Made by a program: the position numbers and the translations under genes. The notes under the pieces are model-generated. The model ran no database searches, had not been told where the DNA came from, and worked only from the letters and a program-made list of their open reading frames with translations. Positions 9,258-60,713 of a stretch of DNA of 64,000 nucleotides are shown in pieces; the first letter of the stretch is position 1, and each line of letters starts with the position of its first letter. The DNA is from Cryomorphaceae bacterium (GTDB lineage: Bacteria > Bacteroidota > Bacteroidia > Flavobacteriales > UBA7430). Location: the NCBI GenBank assembly GCA_019649675.1, contig BOWN01000001.1:463263-527262 (forward strand), given 5' to 3'.

Positions 9258-10517
9258 ATGAAAAATCGTACTATTAGAAACGTAGCTATACTGGAGTATA
9301 GCTATAGTAGGAGTTATTAGCGTTCAAATTTATTGGATAAATCAAGCGTTGAACCTTCAACAAAAGCAATTTCAAGAAAGCGTATTTATCTCATTAAAAG
9401 AGTAGCAGAAAGAATTTCTGAATACAATAAAATGGATTTCCCAGTTAAAAACCCTGTAAAACAGATATCATCAGACTACTACATTGTAAATATAAGAGAA
9501 GCGATTGATGCAAATATTTTAAAGATTATATTTAAATAAGAGTTTCATAGATCAAATATACAAACTGACTATGAATATGCTATATATGACTGTTCAAGTG
9601 AAAAAATGGTATATGGAGAATATGTTTCTTTCAATAGAACCCAAAAAATAGTCACGCTTGGAGAACTTCCCAAATATGACGAATTTATTTATTACTTCGG
9701 GATAAATTTCCCAAAACAAACCTCATATTTAATCGCAGGAAATACCCTATGGATTATCTTTTCTTTCCTATTAATGATTACTGTCTCGTTTTTTGTTTAC
9801 GCATTGAGTATTATCCTCCGTCAAAAGCGCTTATCCGAACTCCAAAAGGATTTTATAAACAATATGACACATGAGTTTAAAACACCAATATCTACCATTA
9901 ATATTGCTTCGAGTGTTTTGCTAAAAAATGAATACATCAAAAACAATGTAGATTTGAGCAATTATACTCAAATTATTAATGAACAAAACGACCGGCTTAA
10001 TTGGCAAGTAGAAAAAGTCCTGCAAGTAACCGAAATAGAACAGGACCGAATGAACCTTAAAATTGAAAAAATATATTTAAATGAGTCTATAAAATCTGTT
10101 GTTAATAGTGTTAAATTAAATCTTGAAACAAAAGAGGGAAATGTAAAAACAGATCTACTTGCGAAAAATGATTTAATTAACTGCGACAAACTGCATTTAA
10201 CAAATGTTCTATATAATATTATTGATAATGCCATTAAATATTCTGCGGAAAATCCAAAAATTATTATTAAAACTTCCGATGTGGCCGGATTTTTGTGTTT
10301 AAGTATTTGTGACAATGGAATTGGCATTGCTGAAGAGCATATTAAAAATGTGAAAAATAAATTCTTTCGCGTTCCAACAGGAAAAGTTCATAATGTAAAA
10401 GGTTTCGGTTTGGGACTGTATTATGTAAGTCAAGTTTGTAAAGCACACCATTGGGATTGGGAAATCAATAGTCAAAAAGGAGAAGGGACTAGAATTCTTT
10501 TTAAAATTAAACATTAA
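9258..10517 (+). CDS. Sensor histidine kinase (5' part frameshifted)
   Basis: H-box FINNMTHEFKTP, N-box NIIDNAIKYS, DNGIGI, GFGLGL. Confidence 0.92.
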
Positions 10518-45920: not shown

Positions 45921-47193
45921 TTAAAAAAGGTCGTCTGCTGTTATACTTTTTGTTCTTTTTGCTATAATTGATAGATCTTTTTACAAAAGTCTCCTGCTTG
46001 GTTCCAATAATCTCATCATTAAACCATTCAGTATCTTTTAAAAGGGCATCGTCCGTTTCAAAAATTTTGTCTACACCAATACTCTTTAAAGACCTGTTAA
46101 ATCGGTCTTTAATAAACTCCTTTACTTGATTTATTGGAATAAAGTCAAGATCGCCTTTTTCATAGATCCAATCAATAATTTCGCTCTCAGACTTATATGC
46201 CTGTAAACACATGTCTTTAACTCTATTGGCATAATTTTCGTCAAACCAGGATGGGTTTTCTTTTTGAATAATCTTGATTAAGTCAATACCAAAATCACCA
46301 TGAATTTGTTCTTCTTTTGATGTTGCCTCAACCACATTAGAAACCCCTTTAAGTAAATTTCGGTGCTTATTAAAAGCCATAATAATTAAGAACTGAGAAA
46401 ATAGCGAGACATGCTCAATGAATAATGAGAACAATAAAAGTGCATCTGAATATTCTTGGAGGTTTTCGCTCTTAGAACTTGTGAGTGCATTTTCTAAATA
46501 CTGAACGCGTCTCATTATAACAGGTTTCTTTTTTAATTCTTTAAACTCTTTATTCAGACCTAATATTTCAATTAAATGAGAGTATGCATCTGCGTGGCGT
46601 ACTTCACTTTCTCCAAATGTAGCTCCTACTGACCCTACTTCTGGTTTAGGTATTTTATGATATATGTCGCCCCAAAAACTTTTTACTGATACCTCAATCT
46701 GAGAAATGGCAAGCATGGTGTTCTTAATCACTGAGCGTTCCCTGTCAGACAACTTTGCCTTAAAATCTTGAATGTCGCTTGTAAAATTAAACTCTGAATG
46801 AATCCAATATGAGTGACGAATAGCAGAAACATACTCATAAAGCTCTGGATATTCATATGGTTTTAAGTTCAACCTTTTTTCAAAAATATTTCTTTTGCGT
46901 TTTTGGGCTTGTTCATTACGGTAAAGTATGTACGCTTTGGCGACATCCAAAAACTCACTATCCATTAATCTGTGCTCAACGATATCTTGGACCTCCTCAA
47001 TACTCGGCGCATAATTAGAAATTCTTTCGCTGCGTTCTTTAATAATTTCACACACAGTGGCAGACATCCTTTGAGCGTCGGTATGATCACCATGATTTGC
47101 AGATATCATGGCTTTAAAAATTGCTTCTGTAATTTTGTTTGCGTCAAAAACTTCTTTCGAGTCGTCTCTTTTAATGATGTGTTTAATTTCCAT
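45921..47193 (-). CDS. nrdB: Class I ribonucleotide reductase beta subunit with N-terminal ATP cone
   Basis: IIKRD...FDANKITEAI..A...IEEVQDIVE..L (ATP cone); EVRHADAY, EEQIHG; corrected tail SKRTKSITADDLF*. Confidence 0.92.
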
Positions 47194-47514
47194 AGTTCTT
47201 TTATTATATAGCAATATGTATTTCCTCCCTTCCGGGCAAATTATGTTATTGTACTCGTTTAAATCTATAAAATCAAAGATGGTCGAGGGCCAAAAAAAGC
47301 TCACTAAGTCATGAGCATTACAAATATTTTAATAAAAACTTTGTCTTCCAATAGAAGTTTTAAAGTTGGCTTTTGAAGTTTTCAACAAATCATAAATTTA
47401 CATTCGCAATTGCCCAATTTTAATGGGTTATAAATTTTATACCTGTGTTAAAAAGTAAATTTATTTTCTTTTTTCGAACAAAAATTGACTTAAGAAAAAA
47501 AATTAATTATGTGC

Positions 47515-48075
47515 TCATTTTTTTTAAGGTTTTCTGCTGAAAACTCTAAAGGGGTTTTTACCAATCGGTTAAAAATTTTTTTAAAAAGGGGGTTTTTTTA
47601 AAATTTATAGACTGTAACCTTTAATTTTTGCCCCAAATCGCAAGCGGGTTTTTCAAATATGCCAATTGTGGTAGTTCAAAGCATCAAATTCAGGGTAGGA
47701 AGAAATACCCCAAACCCGGGTAAAGTTCCAAAAAGATGGGTTTTTATATTTGATTTTGCCTTCTCCCGGGAAGCGGCCTCAATTGCGCACTTTGCTTTTT
47801 TTTTATCAAAAACATAAACACATTCCGCCGCGCACCAAGGGTGTTTCCTTTTGCCATCTTCTCCAACTACCCCTTGCCTTGGGTTCGACGCCCTTTCCCT
47901 TCTCAGTCATGTAAAGGGTTAACGTCTGCGTATATCAACTCCAAATTTCTAATTCATCCTCGTTGGGGGGCACCGCCATCCCCTAGCCCCACCGCCCCAC
48001 AAGCCCCAGATCGAAAAACAAATTCTTTTTCTAAAAAGGTCTTAAAGAGACCAGCGTATTTTTATTGAAATTATT
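47515..48075 (-). CDS. DUF3109 family Cys-rich protein (heavily error-corrupted; ends approximate)
   Basis: Readable minus-strand fragments EDLxxKEFV, GDGGAP, ELIYADV, PEFDALNYHNWHI, PACDLG, VYKFLK. Confidence 0.65.
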
Positions 48076-48222
48076 TTAAAAAGATACGTTATCATTAGAA
48101 ATGGCCACAATAATTAAATAAAAAAAAAATTGGTGTTAAATTAATTTGATTAATGCAAAATTAAAAAACGAAAAAAGCTTTTGCGGGGATAAACAAAGGG
48201 TTATTTTTTTGAACATTCAATT

Positions 48223-48299
48223 GCCTTGGTGGCGGAATTGGTAGACGCTGGATTAAAAATCCAGTTCTTTCGAGGTGGGTTCGATTCCCACCCAAGGTA
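48223..48299 (+). tRNA. tRNA-Leu (probably CAA; sequence has errors)
   Basis: GCCTTGG/CCAAGGT acceptor stem, TGGCGGAATTGGTAGAC D-arm, CTGGA/TCCAG anticodon stem, long variable arm, GGTTCGATTCCC, discriminator A. Confidence 0.88.
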
Positions 48300-48302
48300 T
48301 TT

Positions 48303-48332
48303 TAACCTTCTCAGAAATGAGGTTTTTTTTTT
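48303..48332 (+). terminator. Hairpin plus T tract after the tRNA; equals the right half of the island repeat
   Basis: aaccttctcagaaatgaggtttttt; the same motif recurs at ~49545, ~54441 and ~55318. Confidence 0.75.
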
Positions 48333-49224
48333 TTAAAAAAGGTCTTTGAGGGTTTTTAGATTTTAATAATTTTCTAGACTGGTGTATCTGGGGCCTTGCA
48401 TTGAGCCACTTTTTGCATTCCCATATTTGATAGTATTTATTTTTTCAGCTTTTGATTTGAAATTTAACTTTACCTTCCTGCGTCTCCGTAAAGGGTCCCC
48501 CAAAAAGGGTACTTCTGCATAATGTGTAATTGCTGAAACTGGAGATGTTTGATAAGCTGCAATATATTTTATTTCATTTTAAAATTTTTCCCCCCAGATA
48601 TTCTTATAGCATAAGGAATTATCTCCAAGAAAAACTCTGTTAAATCCCTCTTTTTTTGCAGGAACAACAATTGGATCAAAACTTTTTTTTTTTATTTTTT
48701 GGTTAACAATAATCTTTTTCCTTTTTTAAAGACCCTTACATTAACTAAAGGAAAAATGCTTAGCACTTCATTTAAAAACTCTTGAATATCTGCTTTTTCA
48801 GACTGGGTTAAAAAATGGTTTTGTTAGGCGTGACAACATTTTAATCTTACATCTTCCGATATCAACAGCTTTTTTTTTTTTAAAACCCATTCCATCCATG
48901 TTATATTAAAATTTTTAAAAAATTATTATTTGATGTAAACCCCCGAAAGTTTTATTCCAAAAAACTTTATTTTTTGATGCGCATCAATTCTGTTTTATAA
49001 CATCCACCTTGACCAATATATATGGTCGGCAAATCATCAGATTCCTCTTCATGTCCGATTAAAATTATTCCTATTTGTGAAAATTATCATTATGTTTTTC
49101 TTACCCCAAAGGGGCTCTGTCTACCTCTAGACCCACCCTGTCCAGTTCTTTTTTGTGATTATTTTAAAGCCCCGGGGTTCCCCTGTTGGGAGAAATAATT
49201 TAATTGTTTTGGCTTTAAGCTCAT
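48333..49224 (-). CDS. GIY-YIG nuclease family protein (heavily frameshifted)
   Basis: Fragments KLFLPTGEPRGFKII, NWTG, IYIGQG, IVVPAKKEGFNRVFLGDN, IKYIAAYQTSPVSAITHYAEV, MQGPRYTSLEKL. Confidence 0.7.
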
Positions 49225-49391
49225 TTTTTTAATTTTTTTAAAAAAATTTGGTGGCACCCAAAGATAGACTTTATACTAAATTGAAACAATATAACTTTTT
49301 TAAAAGGCTTCTAGTCCCTAATTAATAAACTAACGCCATTTTTATTATAAGTATGATTTTATTATTTGTTAAACCCTTCACTTTATGTTGA

Positions 49392-49569
49392 TTCAATAAC
49401 CGTGGTGTAGTATATAATCACTCCAACCCTTCGTTATAAATGCCATATGGGCTTTACCCTCTTCTAGCAGAATGGTCTAAAAGCATAGATTTTATCTAGG
49501 TTCTCGTAAAGGTGTTCGATAACTGGAACGTCATGGGTACTTCAAACCTTCTCAGAAATAGGGGTTTTT
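49392..49569. repeat. Island repeat copy A (most divergent)
   Basis: TTCAATAAC..GTAGTATA left end; GTTCGATAA; GGGTAC followed by AACCTTCTCAGAAAT..GGTTTTT. Confidence 0.7.
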
Positions 49570-49606
49570 GTTTTTTGTATCTTTACTTTTCTTATTCCCC
49601 AAGACT

Positions 49607-51238
49607 ATGAAAAACTACTTTACATATTACTATTTGTTCCTTTTACTTTGTTTGGGCAAGAGAATGACCCTTGTTATTCGCTTTTAATAATATTTATCAA
49701 GAAATTGAAGAATATAATCCCCCCACTCAGTATTGATTTAAACGTTGGTTGGAATTTAATCGGTTATCCATGTGCAGAAGGAGAAAATGCTGAAGCTGCA
49801 TTTAACTTAATTGTTGAAAATATTGAAATTGTAAAAATAATGGTGGCTACGTTTATTGGCCTGAATTCGATTTTAATGGGATTGGCGATTTAAACCCTGG
49901 ACAGGGTTATCAAATTAAGTTATATGATATTGAGACTAATTTTTCATTTTGTAATTCTATTTCATTTCCGGAAGTTCTTGGTTGTACTTACTGTGAATCA
50001 TTAAATTTTAATCCCTTTGCAAATATTGATGATGGAAGTTGTATTTCTGTGATTGAGGGATGTATGAACCCTGTTGCAATAAATTATGACTTCAATGCAA
50101 ATTTGAATATAACTGTGAGTACTATAATACATCCGCAATTTCAGATTCAAACTTTTTATATTTTCTTAATAATAATTTATCCATCTCTTATAGTTAATGA
50201 TTCTCTTAATATTGATGAGGCTTCACACGGTTTCTTTCTTAGAGATTTTTGATGACCAAAATGGTATTTCAAATATAGATGAGTTGGAATATTTTGTTAA
50301 TTTAGATACCTTGATTATCGAGCATCTTGATATTATTCCAGACATAACAGCGTTAACCAATCTAGATAGACTTCTACTATCAGGTCTTCTAATTTCTAGT
50401 TCACTCAATTTATTCTGGATTAATAAATTTAACTTATTTAGAATTAATGAATGTAGATTCTATAATTCAATTGGATTTAGCAGAATTAATTAACCTAGAG
50501 AGTCTTAAAATTCGTTTAAATGATAATTTAGAAAGTGTTTCTGGAATGAATAATCTAAATTTGAATTTAAGTTTCACTAGTTTCATTGGTAATCCAAATT
50601 TAGAATGCCTTGAAGGGATACCACCGTTTTATGATTTAGCTGCGTCTGCTCCACCTCTTGCTTAACAAATGAAGATATTCTTAATGGAAATATTTCTAAT
50701 CTTAAAAAAAGTGATTATTGATTCTTTACAGACAGAATTAGATTCAATTACATTGTCTGGTTGTTCTGATATTTAGTTTGTAATTACCATCAGTCTTACG
50801 TTTACGATGATGGCTCTTGTGTTTTTCCAGAGGAGGGTTATAATTGTCAAGGTGATTTTATTTTTAAGTATTGAGACTTTGCGTTTGGTGGAATTATTTT
50901 TCAGATTAATCAAAATGGTTCTTGGAATGGTTGCTGCACCTGAAGATATTGGTGCATTTCCCAATGGGATGACGCACTCACTGATGCTTCTAGTTATACA
51001 TATGGTGGATATAAGCTGGTATTTGCCTGGCTTAAATGAACTGAACTTATGTATAATACAATTGGTCAAGGGGGGAACTAATGTTGGTAATTTCTGCAAA
51101 TAGTTGGTGTATTGGTCTTGTTGGCAATATAGTAATATGTATTCATATCATTTTTAATTTTAACACTGGTAGTTATAGTAATACTGGTTATAAAAGTAGC
51201 TCTTCCTTATCAAGTCCGCCCAATCCGTTCCTTCTAAG
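49607..51238 (+). CDS. Secreted modular protein: GWN domain, GCxD repeats, LRR segment and DUF1566/Lcl-like C-terminus (frameshifted)
   Basis: Signal ..LFG-QEND; LNVGWNLIGYPC...WPEFDFNGIGDLNPGQGYQIK; GCMNPVAINY; ELEYFVNLDTL; WYLPGLNEL; VRPIRSF*. Confidence 0.65.
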
Positions 51239-51257
51239 TACTAGTTCAATACTAGTT

Positions 51258-51406
51258 GTTCAATAACTGCTGTAGTATAATATCAAGCCTCTTCTAGCTT
51301 CCTTTTAGATTTATCCTCTATATAGCTTTTGTGCTTTTCATAGAACTTTCCAACCTTTTCAAGGTCTTCAATAAAAGAGTTCGATAAGTTCTCACCGCAT
51401 AGTGTG
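51258..51406. repeat. Island repeat copy B (lacks right hairpin)
   Basis: GTTCAATAAC..GTAGTATAA...TAGAACTTTCCAACCTT...GTCTTCAATAAAAGAGTTCGATAAGTT..CACCGCATAGTGT. Confidence 0.9.
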
Positions 51407-51412
51407 CCGTTT

Positions 51413-52472
51413 TTATTTTCCGCTTTTTCTTCTATTATCCTCTCTGCATAACATTTGGCAGTTTTCCGCTGTAGTTTTTCCGCCAGAATGCCAAGGGTCA
51501 ATATGGTCAGCTTCCATTTCGTTTAATTCAAAATGTTTCTTGCAAACTACGCATATTCCTTTTTGTCTTTCGTAGGGATTCCTCGTTTTTGCTTATCACT
51601 AAATGCACGTATGTTTTTAAGTGCTTTTCTTTACCTGTTAAAACAAGAGTATATTCCCTTATTTTGAATATCTTCGTCAAGCATTAGTTCAGTTATTTTT
51701 CTTCCAATTTTTCAGAATCAAATTTTTGGTCTTTATAATCATTGTATAAAAATCCCCATTTTAATCCTTTCATTTCTTTGCGATAATTTGGAAACGTTGC
51801 CTTTACCCAACTAATTACAGCTTGAAAATATAACCAAATTTCATTAGCATTAGGTTCGTGTTGGTTTTTATCATATAGTCTTCAATATTCCCATCAGAAA
51901 TCCAATCAATTGCTGTTTCTAAATATTCTGTCGATTGGCTGAGCCACTTAAATATTCATCTCCAATTTTAGGTCTACTGTTCTTTGCAAAATAGCGTTTT
52001 ACATCTGTAACCCAAGTACCTGAATAAACTGCATTTCGTAATTCTTGATTCGTGAGTTTTTCTCCTGCAATATTTATTGTTTTAAAACCATTCAAGTTTT
52101 TCACTATCTGTTCCTTTACAGAAATAAACCATTAATTCATAATCTAATAATTCGTCTTGTTTATCTTTTGGAAGATTATGAAAGCAAGTCCATTTATTGA
52201 AAAATCGTTGTTGACATATTGACAAATTGATATTGTTCTTTGTTGTCCATCAATTATTTCAAAATCGCCATCTTTTTAACTGCCCAATACATAACATTTA
52301 AGGGAAAGTTTTTTTTTATAGTTTCAATTACTGGTCTCGTTGTTGTCTTTAATAAAATTCTCGTTGATATGGGGGGACGAATATCTAATTTACCTCCATA
52401 TCCAAAACTTCGTTAATTTTCAATCTTTCGTAAGTTCACGTACTTTTTTTTTTTTTTTAGGTCTATGTTCAT
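51413..52472 (-). CDS. DUF262 (ParB-like) plus HNH endonuclease (frameshifted)
   Basis: [80 protein letters not shown]. Confidence 0.85.
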
Positions 52473-53519
52473 TTATAATTTCTTGTTTTAATGATTATTC
52501 TATAAAATTGACTTATACGATTTCCCTTTTTATTTTGGGATCCCTTTTTAAATCAGAAAGAGCATCTTTTTTGGGAAAATTTTTATTTTTGATTATATGG
52601 GCTTTCCCAGGGTAAAACCTATGATTTCAAATTGGTCAGGATTGTGTTTGTCAACAAATGTTTTTGGGGCACCCATTTTCCCCTTTTTAGTCCATTGGAA
52701 TATTTGCAACTTTTTAAACTTCAATCGCATCATAATTTTCATACTTCGGAAATCATCTTCATTTCCTTTGTATGCTTTATAAAGAATTAAATCTTCTGTG
52801 TGTTTCTTAACTTTTTGATTTGTAAACCAACAAAAGGATACACGTGCAATTTTTTTCCGTCATCATCTATATGGTGAAATTTTCCCCGTTTAGGAACAAC
52901 AAAACATTCCTACATTGAAATTTGTATAACCCGTTCTCATTTTGCCTTTTTTAAGAGAAAGGATTCTTTGTATGAAAAGCTTTGTTTTCCTATTATTAAA
53001 AATTTCTTGTCATATTCATCCAACTGTGAAATGTATTCTTAAATAAAGAAAACGGTGGATTACTAACTATTATGTCAGTTTTTTTAATATATCTAAACAT
53101 TCTTGACTTCTAAAATCTCCATTTCCCTTTTTTAATGCAGAGAATTCTTACGTGTTTTAAGAGATACTCTACATCACTAATATCAATGCTCCATCATTAT
53201 TAAAATTTTAACTTCATTAATTACAATTTTGATTGGCTCTTTTTTTTTGGGACTTAACTCCTTTTATGTCAAAAATAGATAATTAGTACCTAATATTTGA
53301 ACATGCATAGCGGGTTGAAATGGTTTTTTGCCGAGTAAATTGAAATTGAAGCAAAGTATTTAAAGAAATTATTTTAAAATGGGTCGTCAGCGTTACAATA
53401 AACTATTTTATCCGTGAATTGCCCTTTTGTAATGTCGAGTTTTTTTTCAATGTCAGTTAGTTGAGTATAAAACTCGTTTTTTTTAGTTTTTATAGTTTTT
53501 TTAATGTTTTATGAGCCAT
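52473..53519 (-). CDS. Adenine-specific DNA methyltransferase, EcoRI family (frameshifted)
   Basis: Fragments EFYTQLTDIE, IVYCNADDP, GNGDFRSQECL, DIIVSNPPFSLF, WFTN, NPDQFEIIG. Confidence 0.82.
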
Positions 53520-53599
53520 TCATTTAAAGTTTTTTTTTGGTTTCCATTTAAAAAAATTCAATTCCTTTTTTCGTTTTCAGCACAATGTTTGTTCAAATG

Positions 53600-53737
53600 G
53601 CACACAACTGGTTATATCCAAACAAAAGGGTTTTTGTTACTAGCTAAATATTTGGGGATAACACAACTTTTTTTTTCATTATTTTTTAAATATAAAAAAA
53701 ATTTTAAATCCAATCCAAAGGTTCATTAGTTGTATGC
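53600..53737 (-). repeat. attC-like inverted repeat upstream of the methylase
   Basis: gcacacaact (53600-53609) and agttgtatgc (53728-53737), 9 of 10 positions complementary. Confidence 0.45.
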
Positions 53738-54287
53738 GAAATACTTGTTACTTTGGGGAAAACAAAAGGCATTAACTTAATAAGCAATCCAATATGGCCG
53801 TCAAAGATGCTAACAAATATTATGAAATTTGAACTCCACAATTGAATTACTTAAACAAATACATTCAGCATTGACTCACTTCCCTATAAATTACCGGCCT
53901 TGACATACGAGATTATGAAAAAATAAAGGCCACTACGTATGAGTCAATAAAAAATAAGAGAATTCAACCATTAAAGATAAAGAAATTAGAAGCCTTTTTT
54001 GAATACTACATTTTCAGTCTAGATGTTCGGCGGGTTGAGTCGGTGTTTAGTCAATTTTCAAATGACTCTAGAGCCTATATTAAAAAAAAATATAGATAAA
54101 AAAAACATTGCAACCACCCGGGAAGAAATTTTAAATTAAAAAGGGTTTTTTTAACAGATTTCATTCTGCAATGAACTACAGTGGTGGTCGAGTGTATTAT
54201 TACAATACATTTTTAGATGAAAGTATTTCCATAAAAAAAAAACTGTCTTTTTTTATTTATGATTTTTTTTATAATAGCTACCCCTTA

Positions 54288-54468
54288 GTTCTATAACTGT
54301 ATAGTAGTATAATCCTAAGCATCTTCTAGGTTCTTCTTAGAGTTAGAGCGTATATTTTTTATGCTTTTCGTAGAACTTTCCAACCTTCTCGGGGTCTTCA
54401 AAAAAAAGAGTTCGATAAGTTCACCGCATAGTGTACTTCTAACCTTCTAAAAAGGGGAAAGGGTTTTT
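54288..54468. repeat. Island repeat copy C
   Basis: GTTCTATAAC..GTAGTATAA...GTAGAACTTTCCAACCTT...GTTCGATAAGTTCACCGCATAGTGTAC, then an error-corrupted AACCTTC hairpin. Confidence 0.9.
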
Positions 54469-54476
54469 TATATTTG
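54469..54476 (+). promoter_or_regulatory. Bacteroidota -7 promoter element
   Basis: TATATTTG matches TAnnTTTG, just upstream of the cargo ATG. Confidence 0.5.
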
Positions 54477-54483
54477 AATATTA

Positions 54484-55188
54484 TGATGGAATACAGCTTA
54501 TTATTTGTCACAATTTTTTTTATTACAACCTGTTTTATTACTGTTTTAGGTTTTTATGCAGCAAGTAAGTCTAAGGCTTTTCTAATTTTTTCACTATCCT
54601 GGATTTTAATTCAATCGGTTCTTGGTTTTTATGGTTTTCTATCAAAACATCAACTTGACGCCACCTAGGATAATGTTGTTTGGACTTTTACCAATTTTAT
54701 TAATTTTTGCATCTACATTTTTTTCATTAAAAGGTAAAAAGTTTATTGATAGTATTGACTTAAAATTACTTACGTATTGCCACACAATAAGAATCCCTAT
54801 AGAAATTATCTTAACATTATTGTACCATAAAGGATTAATGTCTGTCTTAGTTACATTTGAAGGAACTAATTTTGATATTTTAACTGGTATCTCAGCACCA
54901 ATAATCGTGTTTTTTATTTTTAGAAAAAACACTGTTCATCATCGAGCTTTGCTTCTGTGGAATTTTGTCTGTTTAATCTTGTTATTAAATGTAATTGTTA
55001 CAGCTGTGCTATCAACACCATCACCAATGCAGTTATTATCTTTAGCCCAACCAAATGTTGCAATTTTAACTTTTCCATTTAATCTACTTCCATCGTTTAT
55101 AGCCCCCCTAATGTTATATGCACATCTGATAGCAATAAGAAAAATACTTATTAAAAATTCTAAGTTCTATAACCACCTTGTAGTATAG
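54484..55188 (+). CDS. Multi-pass membrane protein of unknown function (one frameshift)
   Basis: ORFs 54474..54668 and 54622..55188 join; HTIRIPIE, TFEGTNFDILTG, QPNVA, FPFNLLP. Confidence 0.75.
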
Positions 55189-55343
55189 CCCTATACCCTT
55201 CTAGGGTCATCTTAGAATTAGACTTTATATATCTCTTTACGTTTTTCGTAGAACTTTCCAACCTTATCGAGATCTTCAATAAAAATGTTAGATAAGTTCA
55301 CCGCATAGTGAACCTCTAACCTTTTCAGAAATGAGAAGGTTTT
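55164..55343. repeat. Island repeat copy D (cleanest)
   Basis: GTTCTATAAC..GTAGTATA...GTAGAACTTTCCAACCTT...GATAAGTTCACCGCATAGTGAAC, then AACCTTTTCAGAAATGAGAAGGTTTT. Confidence 0.9.
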
Positions 55344-55349
55344 ATTTTT

Positions 55350-55357
55350 TATATTTG
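55350..55357 (+). promoter_or_regulatory. Bacteroidota -7 promoter element
   Basis: TATATTTG 22 nt upstream of ATG 55380. Confidence 0.55.
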
Positions 55358-55379
55358 ATTATCAATTAAAATTAAAACA

Positions 55380-55946
55380 ATGAAAAAATTCTCTTTGCTT
55401 ATCATTACCTTAATACTTGCAGCGCTTAACTCTTATTCTCAAGACAAACCCTTCAGGGTTGGAGTTGGGTTGGGGTTTCCAAATTTGGCAGGTTTAAATC
55501 TTGAATACGTGACCTCTGGATTTAATAATAAATTGGCAGCTAACTTAGACTATTCATCAATAAAATTAAAAGATGGAGAAATAGATTTTAACTATTCGTA
55601 TTTTGAGCTTGGTGGAAACTATTATTTTGGTCAAAAAAGTAAAGGTTTATATGGTCATCTTAGTTATGGAATAATTGGGTTTGAAGGAAACTATAGCGAC
55701 CCTGTTTACGGAATTGGAAATGGAAAAATCTCATTAAATATGATTAATTTAATGATAGGCGCAAAATGGGGTAATCGTATGTATATAAGGCCTGAAGTTG
55801 GTTTTGCTAGTTTCTTTAATGAAGCCATAATTAGTGTTGAATATACCGAGCCAACAACAAATGTTACATTAACTGTAGAAGAAGAAATTCCTAATTTTCT
55901 TAAAGATGGCTTAATCTATAATATAGGTGTAGGGCTTTCATTTTAG
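55380..55946 (+). CDS. Small outer-membrane beta-barrel-like protein
   Basis: Signal peptide (SYS-Q), alternating Gly/aromatic strands, C-terminal YNIGVGLSF. Confidence 0.7.
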   Translation: MKKFSLLIITLILAALNSYSQDKPFRVGVGLGFPNLAGLNLEYVTSGFNNKLAANLDYSSIKLKDGEIDFNYSYFELGGNYYFGQKSKGLYGHLSYGIIGFEGNYSDPVYGIGNGKISLNMINLMIGAKWGNRMYIRPEVGFASFFNEAIISVEYTEPTTNVTLTVEEEIPNFLKDGLIYNIGVGLSF

Positions 55947-56287
55947 TGTCCTATCATAATTCAAAAACAGAGGCCACCCAAATGGCTGGTTTTTCATTTG
56001 TTCTGGTTTTGTTATTGTAAACATAGACAAATAATTTATATTGTTTTAATGTATCAGGTATGTAAAGTTATTAATGGTCGCGGGAGTAAATCGAAAAGCC
56101 GATTGAGAGGGTGGCGTCATTTATTTAGACAAAATATTTTTTATTTCACTACACTCTATTTTAATCGCTGTTCTCATGACTAGTGATCTGTTCTTCGGAG
56201 GTTAAAAGTGGATTAAGTTTAACACTCTTTGCTGTTTCAGAAATAAAATATAAATAGTCTTTTAGGTTTACGAATTAACGCAGAATT

Positions 56288-56992
56288 ATGGAATTAAAAA
56301 ACAAAAACATCCTTCTTACGGGGGGTAGCTCAGGTATAGGAAAAAAAACCGCTGAGATGCTGGTTGAAAAAGGAGCAAAAGTTCTAATTACAGGGCGGTC
56401 TTACGATAAAATAGAGACAATTAAACAGCATTTGGGGGTGTTAGGGGTCTCCTTTGACATTTCTGATATAGAAAACATAGCTATAAAAACAGATGAGTGT
56501 GTTGAGCTCTTAGGGGGGCGTGTAGATGTCTTAATTAACAATGCTGGCATAGGTGAATTTGGGCCATTGGACAAAATAGATGTGACAAGCTTTCTAGAGG
56601 TTTTTAATACAAATGTATTTGGCTTAGCTTTATTAACTAAGGAGCTTATTCCTGTAATGAAAAAACAAAGTCAAGGAACCATAATTAACATTGGGTCATC
56701 TGCTAGTATTCGTGGATTTAAAAACGGAAGCGTTTATGCTGCTTCTAAATTTGCAGTGCGAGCACTATCTCAATGTTGGCAAGCAGAGTTAAGGCCCCAC
56801 AATATTCGCGTCTGTCAAGTTAATCCTAGTGAAGTAACAACTGCCTTTGCTCAGAAAGACCGAAAAGAAAGAGCGGATCTTGACCACAAACTCTCACCAA
56901 AAGAAATTGCTCACACCATTATTTCAATAATAGAGATGAGAAATAAAGGGTTTGTTCCGGAAGTGAATATCTGGGCTACTAATCCTTTTTAA
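56288..56992 (+). CDS. SDR family oxidoreductase
   Basis: TGGSSGIG, NNAG, YAASK. Confidence 0.93.
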   Translation: MELKNKNILLTGGSSGIGKKTAEMLVEKGAKVLITGRSYDKIETIKQHLGVLGVSFDISDIENIAIKTDECVELLGGRVDVLINNAGIGEFGPLDKIDVTSFLEVFNTNVFGLALLTKELIPVMKKQSQGTIINIGSSASIRGFKNGSVYAASKFAVRALSQCWQAELRPHNIRVCQVNPSEVTTAFAQKDRKERADLDHKLSPKEIAHTIISIIEMRNKGFVPEVNIWATNPF

Positions 56993-57152
56993 ACTTCACT
57001 AACCATCCTTTTAAATAAATTAATAAAACCCTGTCTCTGCTCGGTAGAAGACCTATTGAAAAATACTGGATATCGCTGTTAGATACTCCTCAATAAATTA
57101 AGACCAAAAAGATGATGTTTTTTGTATATTTACTGCACTTATCCAACACACA

Positions 57153-57503
57153 ATGAAAAAGCAATTTTACTTCTTTTTGTTTATTTTACTCTTTTTCAAC
57201 GCTTCCTGTAAAGACAGTGTATCGGGCTGTGTAGATGCCAGTGCAACCAACTATAATCCAAATGCGACTATTAATGATGAATGTTGCTATAATTGCTTCA
57301 CTTCTCTTGGTTACAGCCTTGGCGAGTATTGTAACTATAATTTAGACTTTATCCTCGAAAATGAATTTAATGGTTTGATTCAGTGCTACTCAGTAAATGG
57401 AGATATTGTTCCCGCATCAGTGCAAGAGGGTACTGCTATTCTTGACTCACAAGGAGAACCTGTATTCTGGCCTTATGCTTCTTTTAATATTTATTGCAAT
57501 TAA
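57153..57503 (+). CDS. Small Cys-rich lipoprotein with one GCxD repeat
   Basis: Lipobox-like ASC followed by GCVDASATNYNPNATIND. Confidence 0.7.
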   Translation: MKKQFYFFLFILLFFNASCKDSVSGCVDASATNYNPNATINDECCYNCFTSLGYSLGEYCNYNLDFILENEFNGLIQCYSVNGDIVPASVQEGTAILDSQGEPVFWPYASFNIYCN

Positions 57504-57615
57504 GTATTCACTTGTTTACTTTTCGCTTATAGCGTATTAATATTTAAAATAAGCTACTTATTACCTCTGTTTTAATCTCAGTTTTGTAGATTAGCGAAAA
57601 CAAAATTTATCCGTC

Positions 57616-57996
57616 ATGAGAACAAAACTTACTCTTACAATATTAGGTGCATATAATATTCTTTTTGGCTTGGTGGCTATGTTTGCGTCTGCTACAATGG
57701 CTGCGGAAATAGTTAACTCAGACAGCCTTGAAGTAATTAGAATGGGAGAGCTATTTCACATTGGTTTGGGTCATGCTATTTTTCTTTGTGGTTTGTTATT
57801 AATGTTTGCTAGAAACGCAGAGTTAGCTACTGCAAAAAATATTATATTAGCTTATATGATTGGAATAGCAATTCTTTTTTATATTTTTTTCGGGGTAATG
57901 GCAAACGAACCGTTAATTCTATTTAGCGCTTCAAATGTGGTGCCTGATTTTCTTTTCTTTGGTGTTGCCATTTTCGGTTACTTAAAAGCAAAATAG
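57616..57996 (+). CDS. Four-helix membrane protein of unknown function
   Basis: Intact ORF with four hydrophobic segments. Confidence 0.7.
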   Translation: MRTKLTLTILGAYNILFGLVAMFASATMAAEIVNSDSLEVIRMGELFHIGLGHAIFLCGLLLMFARNAELATAKNIILAYMIGIAILFYIFFGVMANEPLILFSASNVVPDFLFFGVAIFGYLKAK

Positions 57997-58060
57997 CTAA
58001 AGGCCTATATTTAAAATGCCTTCTGCTTGAGATGGCTTTTTATTTTCATTAATACATCTT

Positions 58061-58396
58061 ATGAACCAACAAGAGCGAAAAAAGGCGAAAGAGTCGATCA
58101 TAAAATCAATTGAAGAAACACAGAAAGACATTTCAAACCTTAAAGAACTAACAAAACCAATACCTCCAGAAAACGCAATTGGGCGAGTCAGCAGAATGGA
58201 CGCCATTAACAATAAAAGTGTGAGTGAAGCTGCGTTAACAAATGCCATTAACAAGCTTACTTTGTTAGAGCTTGCGCTTCAAAAAATAAATCACGAAGAT
58301 TTTGGTCTTTGCGTTAGATGCAAAAATGAAATTCCTATTCAACGGATCTTATTAATGCCTCAAAGTAACAGATGTGTTCATTGCGCTTCCAAATAA
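58061..58396 (+). CDS. TraR/DksA family C4 zinc-finger protein
   Basis: GRVSRMDAINNK, FGLCVRC..I..QR....P....CVHC. Confidence 0.9.
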   Translation: MNQQERKKAKESIIKSIEETQKDISNLKELTKPIPPENAIGRVSRMDAINNKSVSEAALTNAINKLTLLELALQKINHEDFGLCVRCKNEIPIQRILLMPQSNRCVHCASK

Positions 58397-58560
58397 CCTC
58401 ATATAGGTATGTTTATTTTGCCACTAAAGCCAATGATAGAAGTGTATTTAACTGTTGGTTTTTATTTTAAAATACAGACCTCTATTTTCAATATAATTTT
58501 ATACATTTGCTGGCCATAATAGAATGGCTAATTATTCTATTTATCAAAGAGTTAAGGACG

Positions 58561-59487
58561 ATGGGTACACCAGTTAAAATATTTTCAGGAAGAGCAACCT
58601 TACCATTAGCAAAAGAAATTGCCAAGAGTTACGGTGTAGCTTTGGGAAATGTTATCATTTCTAGATTTAGCGATGGTGAGTTTATCCCTTCTTTTGAAGA
58701 GACGGTTAGAGGCTCAAAAGTATTTATCATTCAGTCTACACCACCACCATCAGATAATTTAATGGAATTGTTACTGATGATTGATGCAGCAAAGCGTGCA
58801 TCGGCTGAACAAATTGTTGCTGTTATGCCTTATTTTGGTATGGCACGACAAGATCGCAAAGACAAGCCTAGAGTACCAATAGGTGCAAAGCTAGTTGCCA
58901 ATATGCTCTCGGCAGCTGGTGCTACAAGAGTAATGACTTGTGATCTTCATGCAGATCAAATTCAGGGCTTCCTTGAGGTTCCGGTAGATCACCTGTATGG
59001 ATCTTCTGTGTTTATCGATCACATTCGAGCATTAAACTTAAATAAGTTAACTATTGCATCACCTGATATGGGTGGCTCTAAGCGCGCAAATGCATATGCA
59101 AAACATTTGGCTTGCGAAATGGTTATTTGTTACAAGCATAGAAAAAAAGCCAATGAAGTTGGTGAGATGCGTGTTATCGGTGATGTAAAAGGTAAAAACA
59201 TTATTCTTGTAGATGACATGGTTGATACAGCCGGCACACTCACAAAAGCCGCTGATATGATGATTAAAGAAGGTGCGCTATCAGTCAGAGCTATTTGTAC
59301 TCATGCTGTTTTGTCTGGTGATGCATACAATCGCATTGAGAATTCAAAAATACTAGAGCTCATTATTTCTGACACACTACCAAGTAATAAAAGTCCTAAA
59401 ATAAAAGTCTTAAGTATCGCTCCAATGTTCGCCAATGTTATTAAAAACGTTGTGTTCAATGAGTCGATAAGCAAAAAACTTTATTAA
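58561..59487 (+). CDS. prs: Ribose-phosphate pyrophosphokinase
   Basis: FSDGE, PYFGMARQDRK, DLHADQIQGF, VDDMVDTAGTL. Confidence 0.97.
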   Translation: MGTPVKIFSGRATLPLAKEIAKSYGVALGNVIISRFSDGEFIPSFEETVRGSKVFIIQSTPPPSDNLMELLLMIDAAKRASAEQIVAVMPYFGMARQDRKDKPRVPIGAKLVANMLSAAGATRVMTCDLHADQIQGFLEVPVDHLYGSSVFIDHIRALNLNKLTIASPDMGGSKRANAYAKHLACEMVICYKHRKKANEVGEMRVIGDVKGKNIILVDDMVDTAGTLTKAADMMIKEGALSVRAICTHAVLSGDAYNRIENSKILELIISDTLPSNKSPKIKVLSIAPMFANVIKNVVFNESISKKLY

Positions 59488-59515
59488 TTAATTCATTAAC
59501 TAAAAATCAAACAAA

Positions 59516-60144
59516 ATGAAATCAGTATCTATTAGCGCTGAAAAGCGTGTAGATTTGGGGAAAAAAGAAGCTAAGTCTTTAAGGGCTGCGGGAAAAGTAC
59601 CATGCGTTGTTTACGGAGGTGAGACTATCCTTCACTTTGCCGCTTCGGAGGTCGCTTTTAATAACCTTGTTTACACACCAAATGTATATACGGTGGCGAT
59701 TGATATTGAGGGCAATACTGTGAATGCCCTTATCAAAGACATTCAATTCCACCCCGTAACAGACCGAATTATTCATGTTGACTTTATTGAGCTGACGGCA
59801 GGAAAAGAAGTGAACACGGAAATCCCGGTGATAATTACTGGAAACGCAATCGGGGTGAGAAATGGTGGAAAATTAAGAAAGACACTTCGTAAACTAAGCG
59901 TAAGATCCACGCCAGAAAATCTCCCTGATGCAATAACGCTCGACATCACAGATATGAAAATTGGAGAGAAAATTTATGTTCGTGACATCGATTCAGACAA
60001 TTTTGACATTCTCACTTCAGGGAATGCTGTTGTTGTTGCTGTAAAAACAGCTCGTAATGCAGTTGAGGTTGAGGATGAAGTAGAGAGCGAAGATGGTTCT
60101 GAGAGCGCTGAGCGCCTGCTACTGACACTCCTGCTGCAGAATAA
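59516..60144 (+). CDS. rplY: 50S ribosomal protein L25/Ctc (tail frameshifted)
   Basis: [23 protein letters not shown]; prs-rplY-pth gene order. Confidence 0.95.
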
Positions 60145-60146
60145 GC

Positions 60147-60713
60147 ATGAAAAAATTCCTAATCATTGGTTTAGGTAATGTTGGTGATTCATACAGAGGT
60201 ACGAGACACAACATTGGTTTCAAAATATTGGATGCGCTAGCTAGCGCATCCCAAAATTTCTTTTGAGCCAAATCGTTATGCAGATACTTCGAAATTGAAA
60301 ATTAAAGGGCGAACTCTAGTCTTGGTAAAACCGACCACATTTATGAACCTAAGTGGGAAAGCAGTAAACTACTATCTGCAGTCTGAAAAAATTGAACCTA
60401 AAAACCTTCTCATTATTACTGATGATCTTGCGCTTCCATTTGGAACATTTCGCTTGCGAACTAAAGGAAGTGATGGTGGACACAATGGTTTAAAACACAT
60501 CATTCAAACGCTTAATAGCACAAATTTTCAAGGATTCGGTTTGGTGTCGGGAATGAGTTTTCTAAGGGCAAACAAGTTGATTACGTGTTAGGACAATGGT
60601 CAGAAGAAGAAGAGTGTGCACTTCAAGAACGGATTGATACTGCTATAGAAATAATTAAAAGTTTTGTGATGGTTGGAGCTACACAAACCATGACCCTTTT
60701 CAACGGAAAATAA
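60147..60713 (+). CDS. pth: Peptidyl-tRNA hydrolase (frameshifted)
   Basis: [35 protein letters not shown]. Confidence 0.95.

Follow-up and report, generated by a model that had tools for sequence, protein, structure and literature searches.

A cassette array behind tRNA-Leu(CAA) in a marine Cryomorphaceae bacterium as a trace of large serine recombinase elements

What places a row of unrelated genes, separated by copies of one repeat, directly behind a tRNA gene? This question is raised by a stretch of 64,000 nucleotides (the window) from a Cryomorphaceae bacterium (GCA_019649675.1), which corresponds to G000:C1:463263-527262 of an assembly of 1.74 Mb in 7 contigs, with 34% G+C and a rated completeness of 71%. 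A first-pass annotation, made from the letters alone, had described the locus as an integron-like cassette array without an integrase, anchored at the 3' end of a tRNA-Leu gene. We found that the array is the trace of integrative elements of large serine recombinases (LSRs), a known kind of arrangement in which elements accrete in tandem together with recombinase-less units. Genomes, loci, proteins and sequencing runs are denoted below by the prefixes G, L, P and X.

Behind the tRNA, four copies of one element lie between unrelated cargo units, with left modules starting at 49391 (copy A), 51258 (B), 54288 (C) and 55164 (D). Motif positions and blastn thus agree with the four copies first proposed at ~49392, 51258, 54288 and 55164. 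The element consists of three modules in a row. The L module starts with GTTC(A/T)ATAAC and runs to TGTAGTATA, the M module comprises about 120 nt with the 3' end ...CACCGCATAGTGTAC, and the R module is the hairpin AACCTTCTCAGAAATGAGAAGGTTTT. R is present after copies A, C and D, and also directly after the tRNA at 48300-48334, where the first-pass annotation had also noted the right half of the repeat. The features of the anchor and the repeats are as follows.

48222..48300, plus strand: tRNA-Leu(CAA)-type gene, anchor and B half-site (tRNA detection; 83-nt copy of relatives)
48301..48334, plus strand: R0, native terminator hairpin of the tRNA, right (B') half; tRNA/R0 is an attB-type junction
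49391..49540, minus strand: L_A-M_A, scar from another, second lineage of LSR tails, with the end ...CATGGGTAC; shares 77% identity with G009:C5, in which an LSR 3' end comes next
49541..49575, plus strand: R_A hairpin
51254..51407, minus strand: L_B-M_B, LSR tail scar with an intact frame of 37-45 codons and no R half (E 7.8e-13)
54284..54436, minus strand: L_C-M_C, LSR tail scar, frameshifted in the window, ending ...CATAGTGTAC
54437..54470, plus strand: R_C hairpin, which reads CTTCTAACCTTCTCAGAAATGGGAA in contigs of run X5
55160..55313, minus strand: L_D-M_D, LSR tail scar, ending ...CATAGTGAAC (E 1.3e-8)
55314..55348, plus strand: R_D hairpin, terminator-like

A blastn search with the four copies against all 7 contigs gave matches only at C1:511558-518622, that is, window 48296-55360. 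Because no copy was found elsewhere in the assembly, the element is not a dispersed repeat, and a miniature inverted-repeat transposable element, which the first-pass annotation had named as a possible refutation, was ruled out. Pairwise E-values among copies B, C and D ranged from 1e-23 to 1e-37, and copy A aligned only via its two ends. The L motif is common to all four copies, whereas the middle of copy A differs and comes from another tail lineage with a homologue in G009. The window copies were 78-81% identical to each other and 75-84% identical to copies in two other genera, and accordingly are not recent local duplications. R_D scored as a terminator-like site with 10 pairs. An Rfam scan of 47000-57000 at E<=1 found the tRNA and no other family. 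When L-M was folded as single-stranded DNA (both strands, two copies), no significant structure was obtained (z = -0.05 to -1.5). An attC identity was thereby ruled out (z = -0.05 to -1.49), in line with the first-pass annotation.

The identity of the left half was found on its minus strand, where M forms an open frame, (V)HYAVNLSNSFIEDLEKVGKFYEKHKSYIKSKSKKNLEE(A/V)*. Copy B and G011 have this frame intact, whereas frameshifts interrupt it in C, D, G013 and G010; several tail copies carry frameshifts or stops (G013, G010). A search for longer proteins with the M tail retained 6 proteins from 21 candidates, namely four fragments or read-through frames and two full-length LSRs, P0002 (546 aa) and P0005 (551 aa). 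The bodies of these two are only about 24% identical (tblastn), yet they have the tail in common. Resolvase, Recombinase and zinc ribbon domains were assigned by Pfam to P0002 and to the corresponding genes of G002 and G005, and P0005 likewise has Resolvase and Recombinase domains (the zinc ribbon being listed for the P0002/P0005 pair). In an alignment of 48 copies, the first, second and third codon positions had nucleotide diversities of 0.175, 0.163 and 0.30, and M has thus diverged as coding sequence. The L core is conserved in these copies although non-coding, and the flank further left has a diversity of about 0.5. Two other origins of M were rejected. It is not the C-terminus of the neighboring HNH gene, whose frame stops at 51413-51415 in another frame, nor a decayed tRNA copy, since M is coding and has only GTTCGAT and GTAC in common with the tRNA.

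These comparisons indicate that L-M represents the end of an LSR gene, comprising its final ~40 codons and the flank 3' of them, which is joined at GTAC to the native terminator hairpin R of tRNA-Leu(CAA), and that each repeat in the window represents an attR-type scar (L-M/R) of an LSR integrative element. Because the left half corresponds to an LSR gene end and its downstream flank, the array is read as an LSR-element trace. An integron-like system with its own dedicated site is not what the repeat reveals, and that label serves as an analogy only. An integron with an IntI-type tyrosine recombinase was ruled out, as the associated enzymes are serine recombinases.

LSR genes are present in relatives of the bacterium. 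When 17 genomes of the family were searched with P0005, matches were obtained in 10. Full-length LSR genes were present in G005 (81% over residues 1-514), G002 (39%) and G015 (31%), G004 held a fragment at a contig end, and tails or weak matches only were found in the window genome (G000), G011, G013, G010, G009 and G007. The domain set of an LSR is present in the relatives' genes (G002, G005, P0002), and the window holds only scars. In G005, G002 and G004, the LSR gene adjoins the 3' end of tRNA-Leu(CAA), and the two genes are convergent. The G005 frame reads ...FSHS/VPRAGIEPALPRKLDFESSASTSSAT*, and its end portion is antisense tRNA-Leu(CAA). An antisense-tRNA tail was likewise found in L060 of the P0002 lineage (...NNSRL/VPWVGIEPTLS). 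One recombinase body thus occurs with two alternative tails, M or antisense tRNA, and the switch lies just before the V, at GTAC. Because the same LSR bodies carry the antisense-tRNA tail at the tRNA and the M tail elsewhere, attP appears to lie inside the LSR reading frame, and integration would swap the C-terminus of the enzyme.

A complete element of 3.15 kb was found in G002, consisting of tRNA-GGTAC/LSR (535 aa, minus strand), a small upstream open reading frame (ORF), two plus-strand cargo genes (an 87-aa membrane ORF and a 202-aa lipoprotein) and a diverged M. The LSR body and this M variant share one frame, and the variant ends GTGTAC, followed by the genus's own terminator hairpin. 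A small conserved ORF that closely precedes the LSR gene in the same orientation was seen at L032 16331-16546 (G002, MISLEKCKEILN...) and L035 541-675 (G005, MVSLENCKKILT...), and is a candidate accessory or directionality factor. Empty tRNA sites, which the first-pass annotation had proposed to look for, exist as well, as the site in G003 reads tRNA-GGTAC/TTCAAACCTTCTCATTTCTGAGAAGGTTTT. Four junction types were therefore distinguished.

attB, tRNA/R: G003, L057
attL, tRNA/LSR: G005, G002, L060
attP-type, M/LSR 3' end: L065, L070, L077
attR, M/R: 40 junctions among the matches listed

The only sequence common to all four types is GTACT. The distance from GTTCGAT to GTAC is 16 nt in M and 11 nt in the tRNA; in serine integrases, one recognition motif is shifted outward by 5 bp between attP and attB half-sites. 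A search of viral contigs with P0005 and P0002 found no relatives. L053 (flipped 9895-10444) has an array of four tails, at whose far end the frame of a 173-aa LSR fragment continues into tRNA-Arg(ACG); this tRNA may be a second target, used by a related enzyme.

The anchor itself was called Phe(AAA) by ARAGORN (79 nt, 48222-48300), the sole tRNA found there. Its body is a tRNA-Leu(CAA) with three lesions relative to L057 and other relatives, A for C34 and two short deletions, and an 83-nt tRNA-Leu(CAA) occupies the same place in G011, G013, G003 and L057. Independent contigs have extra letters at 48267-48274, inside the tRNA, and the three lesions are probably assembly errors. The mature tRNA is unaltered. 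The junction falls after the discriminator base, and the repeat holds the terminator rather than tRNA sequence. The element brings the tRNA a new terminator hairpin, located within the last codons of the LSR body.

Other observations concern the surroundings of this tRNA in relatives and in the window lineage. An 82-aa GIY-YIG gene lies directly upstream of tRNA-Leu(CAA) at L014 10860-11170 (G013), and also in L069 and L074; the initial ~24 nt of the tRNA are repeated ahead of that gene, as if it had been inserted into the tRNA 5' end with target duplication. At L017 200-320 (G010), a degenerate tRNA-Leu remnant, uncalled by ARAGORN, precedes an R hairpin and a 6.7-kb stretch of cargo with a decayed M at its end. 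The R hairpin has been found with its loop in either orientation (GAAA or TTTC; L016 9930-9965 of G003, L052, L070 and L060 80-232), and in L060 one R hairpin stands between two inverted M ends, which hints at inversion at a palindromic site. The tRNA and array together are inverted in place between lineages (window 46000-60200 versus L013 of G011 and L016 of G003). The genes prs-rplY-pth accordingly lie left of the tRNA on the minus strand in G011 and G003 whereas in the window lineage they are plus-strand genes to the right of the array, with the other flank swapped likewise.

The tail arrangement extends to a wider group of enzymes. In a set of 98 database proteins, made up of relatives of P0002 with a minimum length of 500 aa plus P0005, tail motifs were counted with self-chosen patterns at the protein, not the DNA, level. 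A tail with the signature of an antisense T-loop (G[ILFV]EP and similar) was present in 74 of the 98, and LDFESSAST, as in antisense tRNA-Leu, in 20. The LSNxF tail was matched by pattern in 3, the tail of P0042 is related, and several of 21 others look tRNA-derived by eye. Native tails retain LSNxF(I/L)xDL in LSRs whose bodies are only 26-42% identical to P0002. A frame across attP and a conserved native tail thus appear to be general in this Bacteroidota clade, as far as protein patterns can tell.

The distribution of the scars was surveyed with a tail alignment. Among species-representative genomes, only two loci were found, G011 and G013 (titled Flavobacteriales metagenome-assembled genomes), and among 401 genomes of the order, five had a match, four of them in the window's family and one weak. 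Marine metagenome contigs contained at least 42 loci. The metagenome matches listed comprised 56 tail hits, from which 5 starting after residue 3 were dropped to leave 51 junctions: 40 with an R-type hairpin, 4 with an LSR 3' end (L065, L069, L070, L077), 4 with other hairpins and a T-run, and 3 with partial or other sequence. Among the same matches, 12 of 42 loci carried 2-4 tails, and most orphan tails keep an open frame. The stems of R vary with compensating changes, and the cargo start codon follows ~20-45 nt after R. In L070 and L069, the LSR body is deleted and its 3' hairpin left in place.

Cargo content and order vary between relatives, with breakpoints at the junction, as the first-pass annotation had anticipated; gene maps, seawater contigs and comparisons with L057 and L047 all bear this out. 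The window, L043, L044, L047 and L059 have a right flank in common, consisting of a 188-aa barrel protein, a short-chain dehydrogenase, three small genes, prs, rplY and pth. To the left of this flank, the window has a membrane protein gene, L058, L059, L062 and L071 have single ORFs of other kinds, and L070 has only two tails. The unit 54437-55313 (R-membrane gene-L-M) aligns over its full length with L057 at 94.8% identity and with L066 at 96.9%; in L057 it comes immediately after the tRNA, and in L049 and L051 it has other neighbors. The locus closest by its flanks, L047 (91-93%), has an extra 424-bp cassette for a 53-aa membrane peptide between the same two units, and in L068 the dehydrogenase gene is flanked by tails. 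Seawater contigs join 48299 to 54462 with the R hairpin between (run X5) or 48322 to 54462 (X1, X2), in three of four runs and two studies. They represent genomes with tRNA/R followed by cassette 4, without cassettes 1-3. Cargo in relatives includes Lcl_C-tailed and DUF285 secreted proteins, a CotH kinase and an ion-channel-like protein, and the complete element of L060 carries an Eco57I/type I-like restriction-modification fusion.

Taken together, we consider it probable (about 0.8) that the array was built by repeated site-specific integration of small LSR elements at the base that immediately follows tRNA-Leu(CAA). While the element is free, its LSR frame would cross attP, with the last ~40 codons (M) and the 3' flank (L) on one side and the gene body on the other, and crossover would occur within GTACT. 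Integration would place the LSR body against the tRNA end (attL), its frame continuing antisense through the tRNA, and would bring cargo-L-M next to R, the tRNA's former terminator (attR). As integrations at the tRNA succeed one another, older units would be pushed away. Units without a recombinase (R, cargo, L-M) might persist as cis-mobilizable cassettes that are gained, lost or reordered at the junctions, moved either by an LSR from another element or by recombination between the ~230-bp repeats. The LSR body would have been lost and R gained before each cargo, and the units may still be mobile today.

Several observations weigh against this reading. Copy B has no right half, and M_B abuts the stop codon of the HNH gene (51413-51415); the geometry first proposed, in which the tRNA keeps the right half and each internal junction has left plus right halves, stands for the tRNA and the other copies and fails here. 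The canonical reactions attP x attB and attL x attR do not convert LSR-cargo-L-M into R-cargo-L-M. An R-like hairpin was sought between LSR and cargo in two complete elements (L060, G002) and none was found, so a simple site-specific loss of the LSR body is unexplained. Possible routes would be excision using a nearer or farther attR, which would carry neighbors along and drop them later; insertion of a circle with an attR site at attL through the excisive reaction; a less strict choice of sites of the kind displayed by CcrAB; or homologous recombination between the ~230-bp repeats, which could yield the same variants. Neither the window nor the 71%-complete assembly yielded a serine recombinase domain, and the P0005 search of the assembly found tails only. 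The first-pass annotation had been right that the window lacks a recombinase, and present mobility would consequently need an incoming element. No circular M/R junction of a window cassette was seen in the Logan contigs, which cannot show rare forms or prove absence. A single back-joint, 51387 to 48304, has a different M end and comes from another locus.

A stronger version of the proposal, in which recombinase-less R-cargo-L-M circles are routinely cut and inserted by an LSR acting in trans, so that the locus is an active gene-capture platform, is possible and can be held only tentatively. It would account for the same cassette at different positions with different neighbors and with homology starting and ending at the junctions, and for mini-cassettes down to 424 bp that are present or absent between close relatives. 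Either an attL x attR-type or an attR x attR reaction could serve for insertion, and an attR circle could in principle enter attL by the excisive reaction. However, serine integrases are strict in their choice of site pairs, the origin of the first R-cargo unit is unexplained, and the lack of both a circle junction in the contigs and an LSR in this genome speaks against routine movement.

It is unlikely, at somewhat longer odds, that the array is a fossil scar of one ancient LSR integration, after which the ~230-bp repeat served only as portable homology for RecA-dependent insertion, deletion and exchange. The repeats, 78-97% identical over ~190-230 bp, would be sufficient for RecA, this genome has no LSR, orphan junctions outnumber LSR-bearing ones by 40 to 4 (of 51, among the matches listed), and the joint in runs X1 and X2 lies inside or after R0, not at GTAC. 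Nevertheless, the tails differ mainly at third codon positions and most are still open, which fits several independent LSR lineages better than it does one scar in neutral decay. Two tail lineages are present in one array (A versus B, C and D), LSR genes of three lineages occupy the same site in the same family, and tRNA/R and M/R have only ~30 bp in common, poor homology for a 6.1-kb difference.

We regard as improbable that L-M-R is a functional gene, either a small RNA running from L to the R terminator or a minus-strand peptide of 23-40 aa. Conservation of the L core, GTTCTATAACTG..TTGTAGTATAAT, equals that of the coding part although the core is non-coding, R is a plus-strand terminator and most orphan tails keep an open frame, but there is neither an Rfam family nor a significant fold, several copies (G013, G010) have frameshifts or stops, and the tail is the C-terminus of full-length LSRs. 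Finally, an artefact of a misassembled variable region is scarcely credible, for although 47300-54400 is indel-ridden and its contig depth is lower than that of the flanks in all four runs, the copies are only 78-81% identical to each other, independent contigs cover cassettes 1-3 with few substitutions, and the same architecture is found in G011, G013 and at least 42 metagenome loci.

The reading frames of the array have to be judged with the quality of the assembly in mind. Long frames cover most of the window, and none such was found from ~47300 to 54400. Independent short-read contigs differ from this region mostly by gaps, with 5 substitutions and 26 gaps in a contig of 1441 nt and 0 and 13 in one of 459 nt; the comparison region 56218-57430 had 4 substitutions and 0 gaps. 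For this reason, the broken genes of cassettes 1-3 are read as indel errors of the assembly, not pseudogenes. Independent contigs also identify 2 extra bases at 51390, in M_B, as an assembly error. The lower contig depth of the array is a hint only, as contig depth does not equal the share of cells. The runs holding the stretch are seawater and marine metagenomes. To the left of the tRNA, the window has a conserved gene, homologous to a protein of ~190 aa, whose coding sequence is distributed over three frames. The cargo units and the gene following the last repeat are as follows.

48335..49390: cargo 1, broken reading frames without an assigned family (no Pfam match; many gaps versus independent contigs)
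49576..51253, plus strand: cargo 2, frameshifted gene for a secreted protein with affinity to the Lcl_C/DUF1566-tailed group (blastx matches include L046 and L076, and Lcl_C is found in the matched proteins)
51408..54283, both strands: cargo 3, with an HNH/GmrSD_N (DUF262) gene at ~51413-52450 (minus), an EcoRI-type adenine methylase at ~52590-53510 (minus) and an ORF at ~53700-54290 (plus) that ends at L_C
54483..55188, plus strand: cargo 4, membrane protein, 226 aa in relatives, with one frameshift in the window
55380..55946, plus strand: 188-aa outer-membrane-barrel-like protein, the last unit or the first conserved gene of the right flank (no Pfam match)

Pfam searches of the cargo 1 and cargo 2 fragments and of the plus-strand ORF 53890-54099 assigned no family to any of 10 fragments. 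A GIY-YIG nuclease had been proposed for cargo 1 and was not confirmed (0 families for 4 of 4 fragments). The lectin-like secreted protein proposed for cargo 2 is indeed related to secreted proteins, which carry an Lcl_C domain, and its C-terminus and flank are 83% identical to a G013 cassette. In cargo 3, Pfam supported the methylase and DUF262-HNH genes of the first-pass annotation (HNH, GmrSD_N, EcoRI-type methylase), and a homologue of its plus-strand ORF precedes the M element in G010. The HNH/GmrSD-type gene ends 5 nt from the M_B junction (window 51408-51415), placed and oriented as the recombinase gene normally is. The 188-aa barrel protein follows the tail in 9 other loci of the lineage.

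Known systems resemble the array in part. Integrons and clusters of attC sites lacking integrases (CALIN) consist of mostly single-gene cassettes with a recurring site of ~150-200 nt, in CALIN with no recombinase nearby. The layout is alike, whereas here there is no folded attC, the recombinase is a serine enzyme rather than IntI and the anchor is a tRNA end rather than attI. SSV1-type archaeal integrases and integration-dependent immunity phages also have attP inside a reading frame, so that integration changes the protein; these are tyrosine recombinases, and the SSV1 gene is split in two, whereas here the last ~40 codons would be exchanged for an antisense-tRNA tail. In the staphylococcal cassette chromosome mec (SCCmec) and pseudo-SCC elements, LSRs integrate at the 3' end of the conserved gene rlmH, several att repeats occur and ccr-less units use recombinases in trans. 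SCCmec differs in its target, its host phylum and its use of two recombinases (CcrA/B), and we know of no recombinase-tail scar in SCCmec.

The nearest described case that we found, judged from the available part of its description, is that of the Dehalococcoides ssrA islands, reported in a paper that also mentions SCCmec composites (McMurdie et al. 2011, PMC3146451). These islands lie in tandem behind a small RNA gene, with a CcrB-like serine recombinase of ~540 aa on the reverse strand next to attL, and 15 units without an integration module were read as cis-mobilizable and moving by accretion (PMC3146451). The likeness thus includes tandem units, a reverse-strand LSR at attL and many recombinase-less units. 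In the present array, tandem recombinase-less units likewise occupy one target, and LSR genes lie at the same tRNA in G002, G005 and G004. The Dehalococcoides target lies inside the T-loop of the transfer-messenger RNA with a 20-bp direct repeat, in contrast to a crossover after the tRNA that duplicates no tRNA sequence, and those islands are large with a six-gene module, whereas the units here are 0.4-3 kb and often hold one gene (PMC3146451). A recombinase frame across attP, as found here, is not reported for Dehalococcoides in the available part of PMC3146451.

The tycheposons of Prochlorococcus are, in the available part of their description, tRNA-anchored islands of streamlined marine genomes in which successive integrations push older ones inward and leave degraded remnants; 910 of 937 have tyrosine recombinases, many have replication genes, and their repeats are partial tRNA copies (10.1101/2020.12.28.424599). 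Here the enzymes are LSRs and the repeat is a terminator, not a tRNA copy, which sets the locus apart from tycheposons so described. No primase, helicase or other replication gene was found among the few ORFs of the complete elements in G002 and L060. In Elizabethkingia, also of the Flavobacteriales, type II integrative and conjugative elements occupy the 3' end of the same tRNA-Leu-CAA, most without a co-located integrase and few with serine recombinases (10.1101/402107). As described in the available part of that source, they are large conjugative elements, not mini-cassette arrays (10.1101/402107). Searches of an open-access library found no description of this system, nor of a serine recombinase frame spanning attP at a Bacteroidota tRNA, which is no proof of absence.

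For these bacteria, the repeats provide a molecular handle on how small marine flavobacterial genomes stock one hypervariable spot with surface, secreted and defence genes. As scars of recombinase genes, they name an enzyme family, a target and a likely crossover, all of which are testable. Two features are unusual for serine integrases, namely a frame that spans attP, so that integration alters the C-terminus of the enzyme, and recombinase-less single-gene units that far outnumber complete elements. It is conceivable, though we would not yet assume it, that streamlined marine Flavobacteriales run a serine-recombinase gene-capture system in which mini-cassettes are shuffled at a tRNA end by LSRs in trans, and in which the conserved C-terminal helix of the enzyme, encoded across attP, could let integration switch the state of the recombinase. 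Mobilization in trans, if true, would make this the serine-recombinase counterpart of the integron, and the tail swap could be a simple natural control of directionality, of interest for recombinase engineering.

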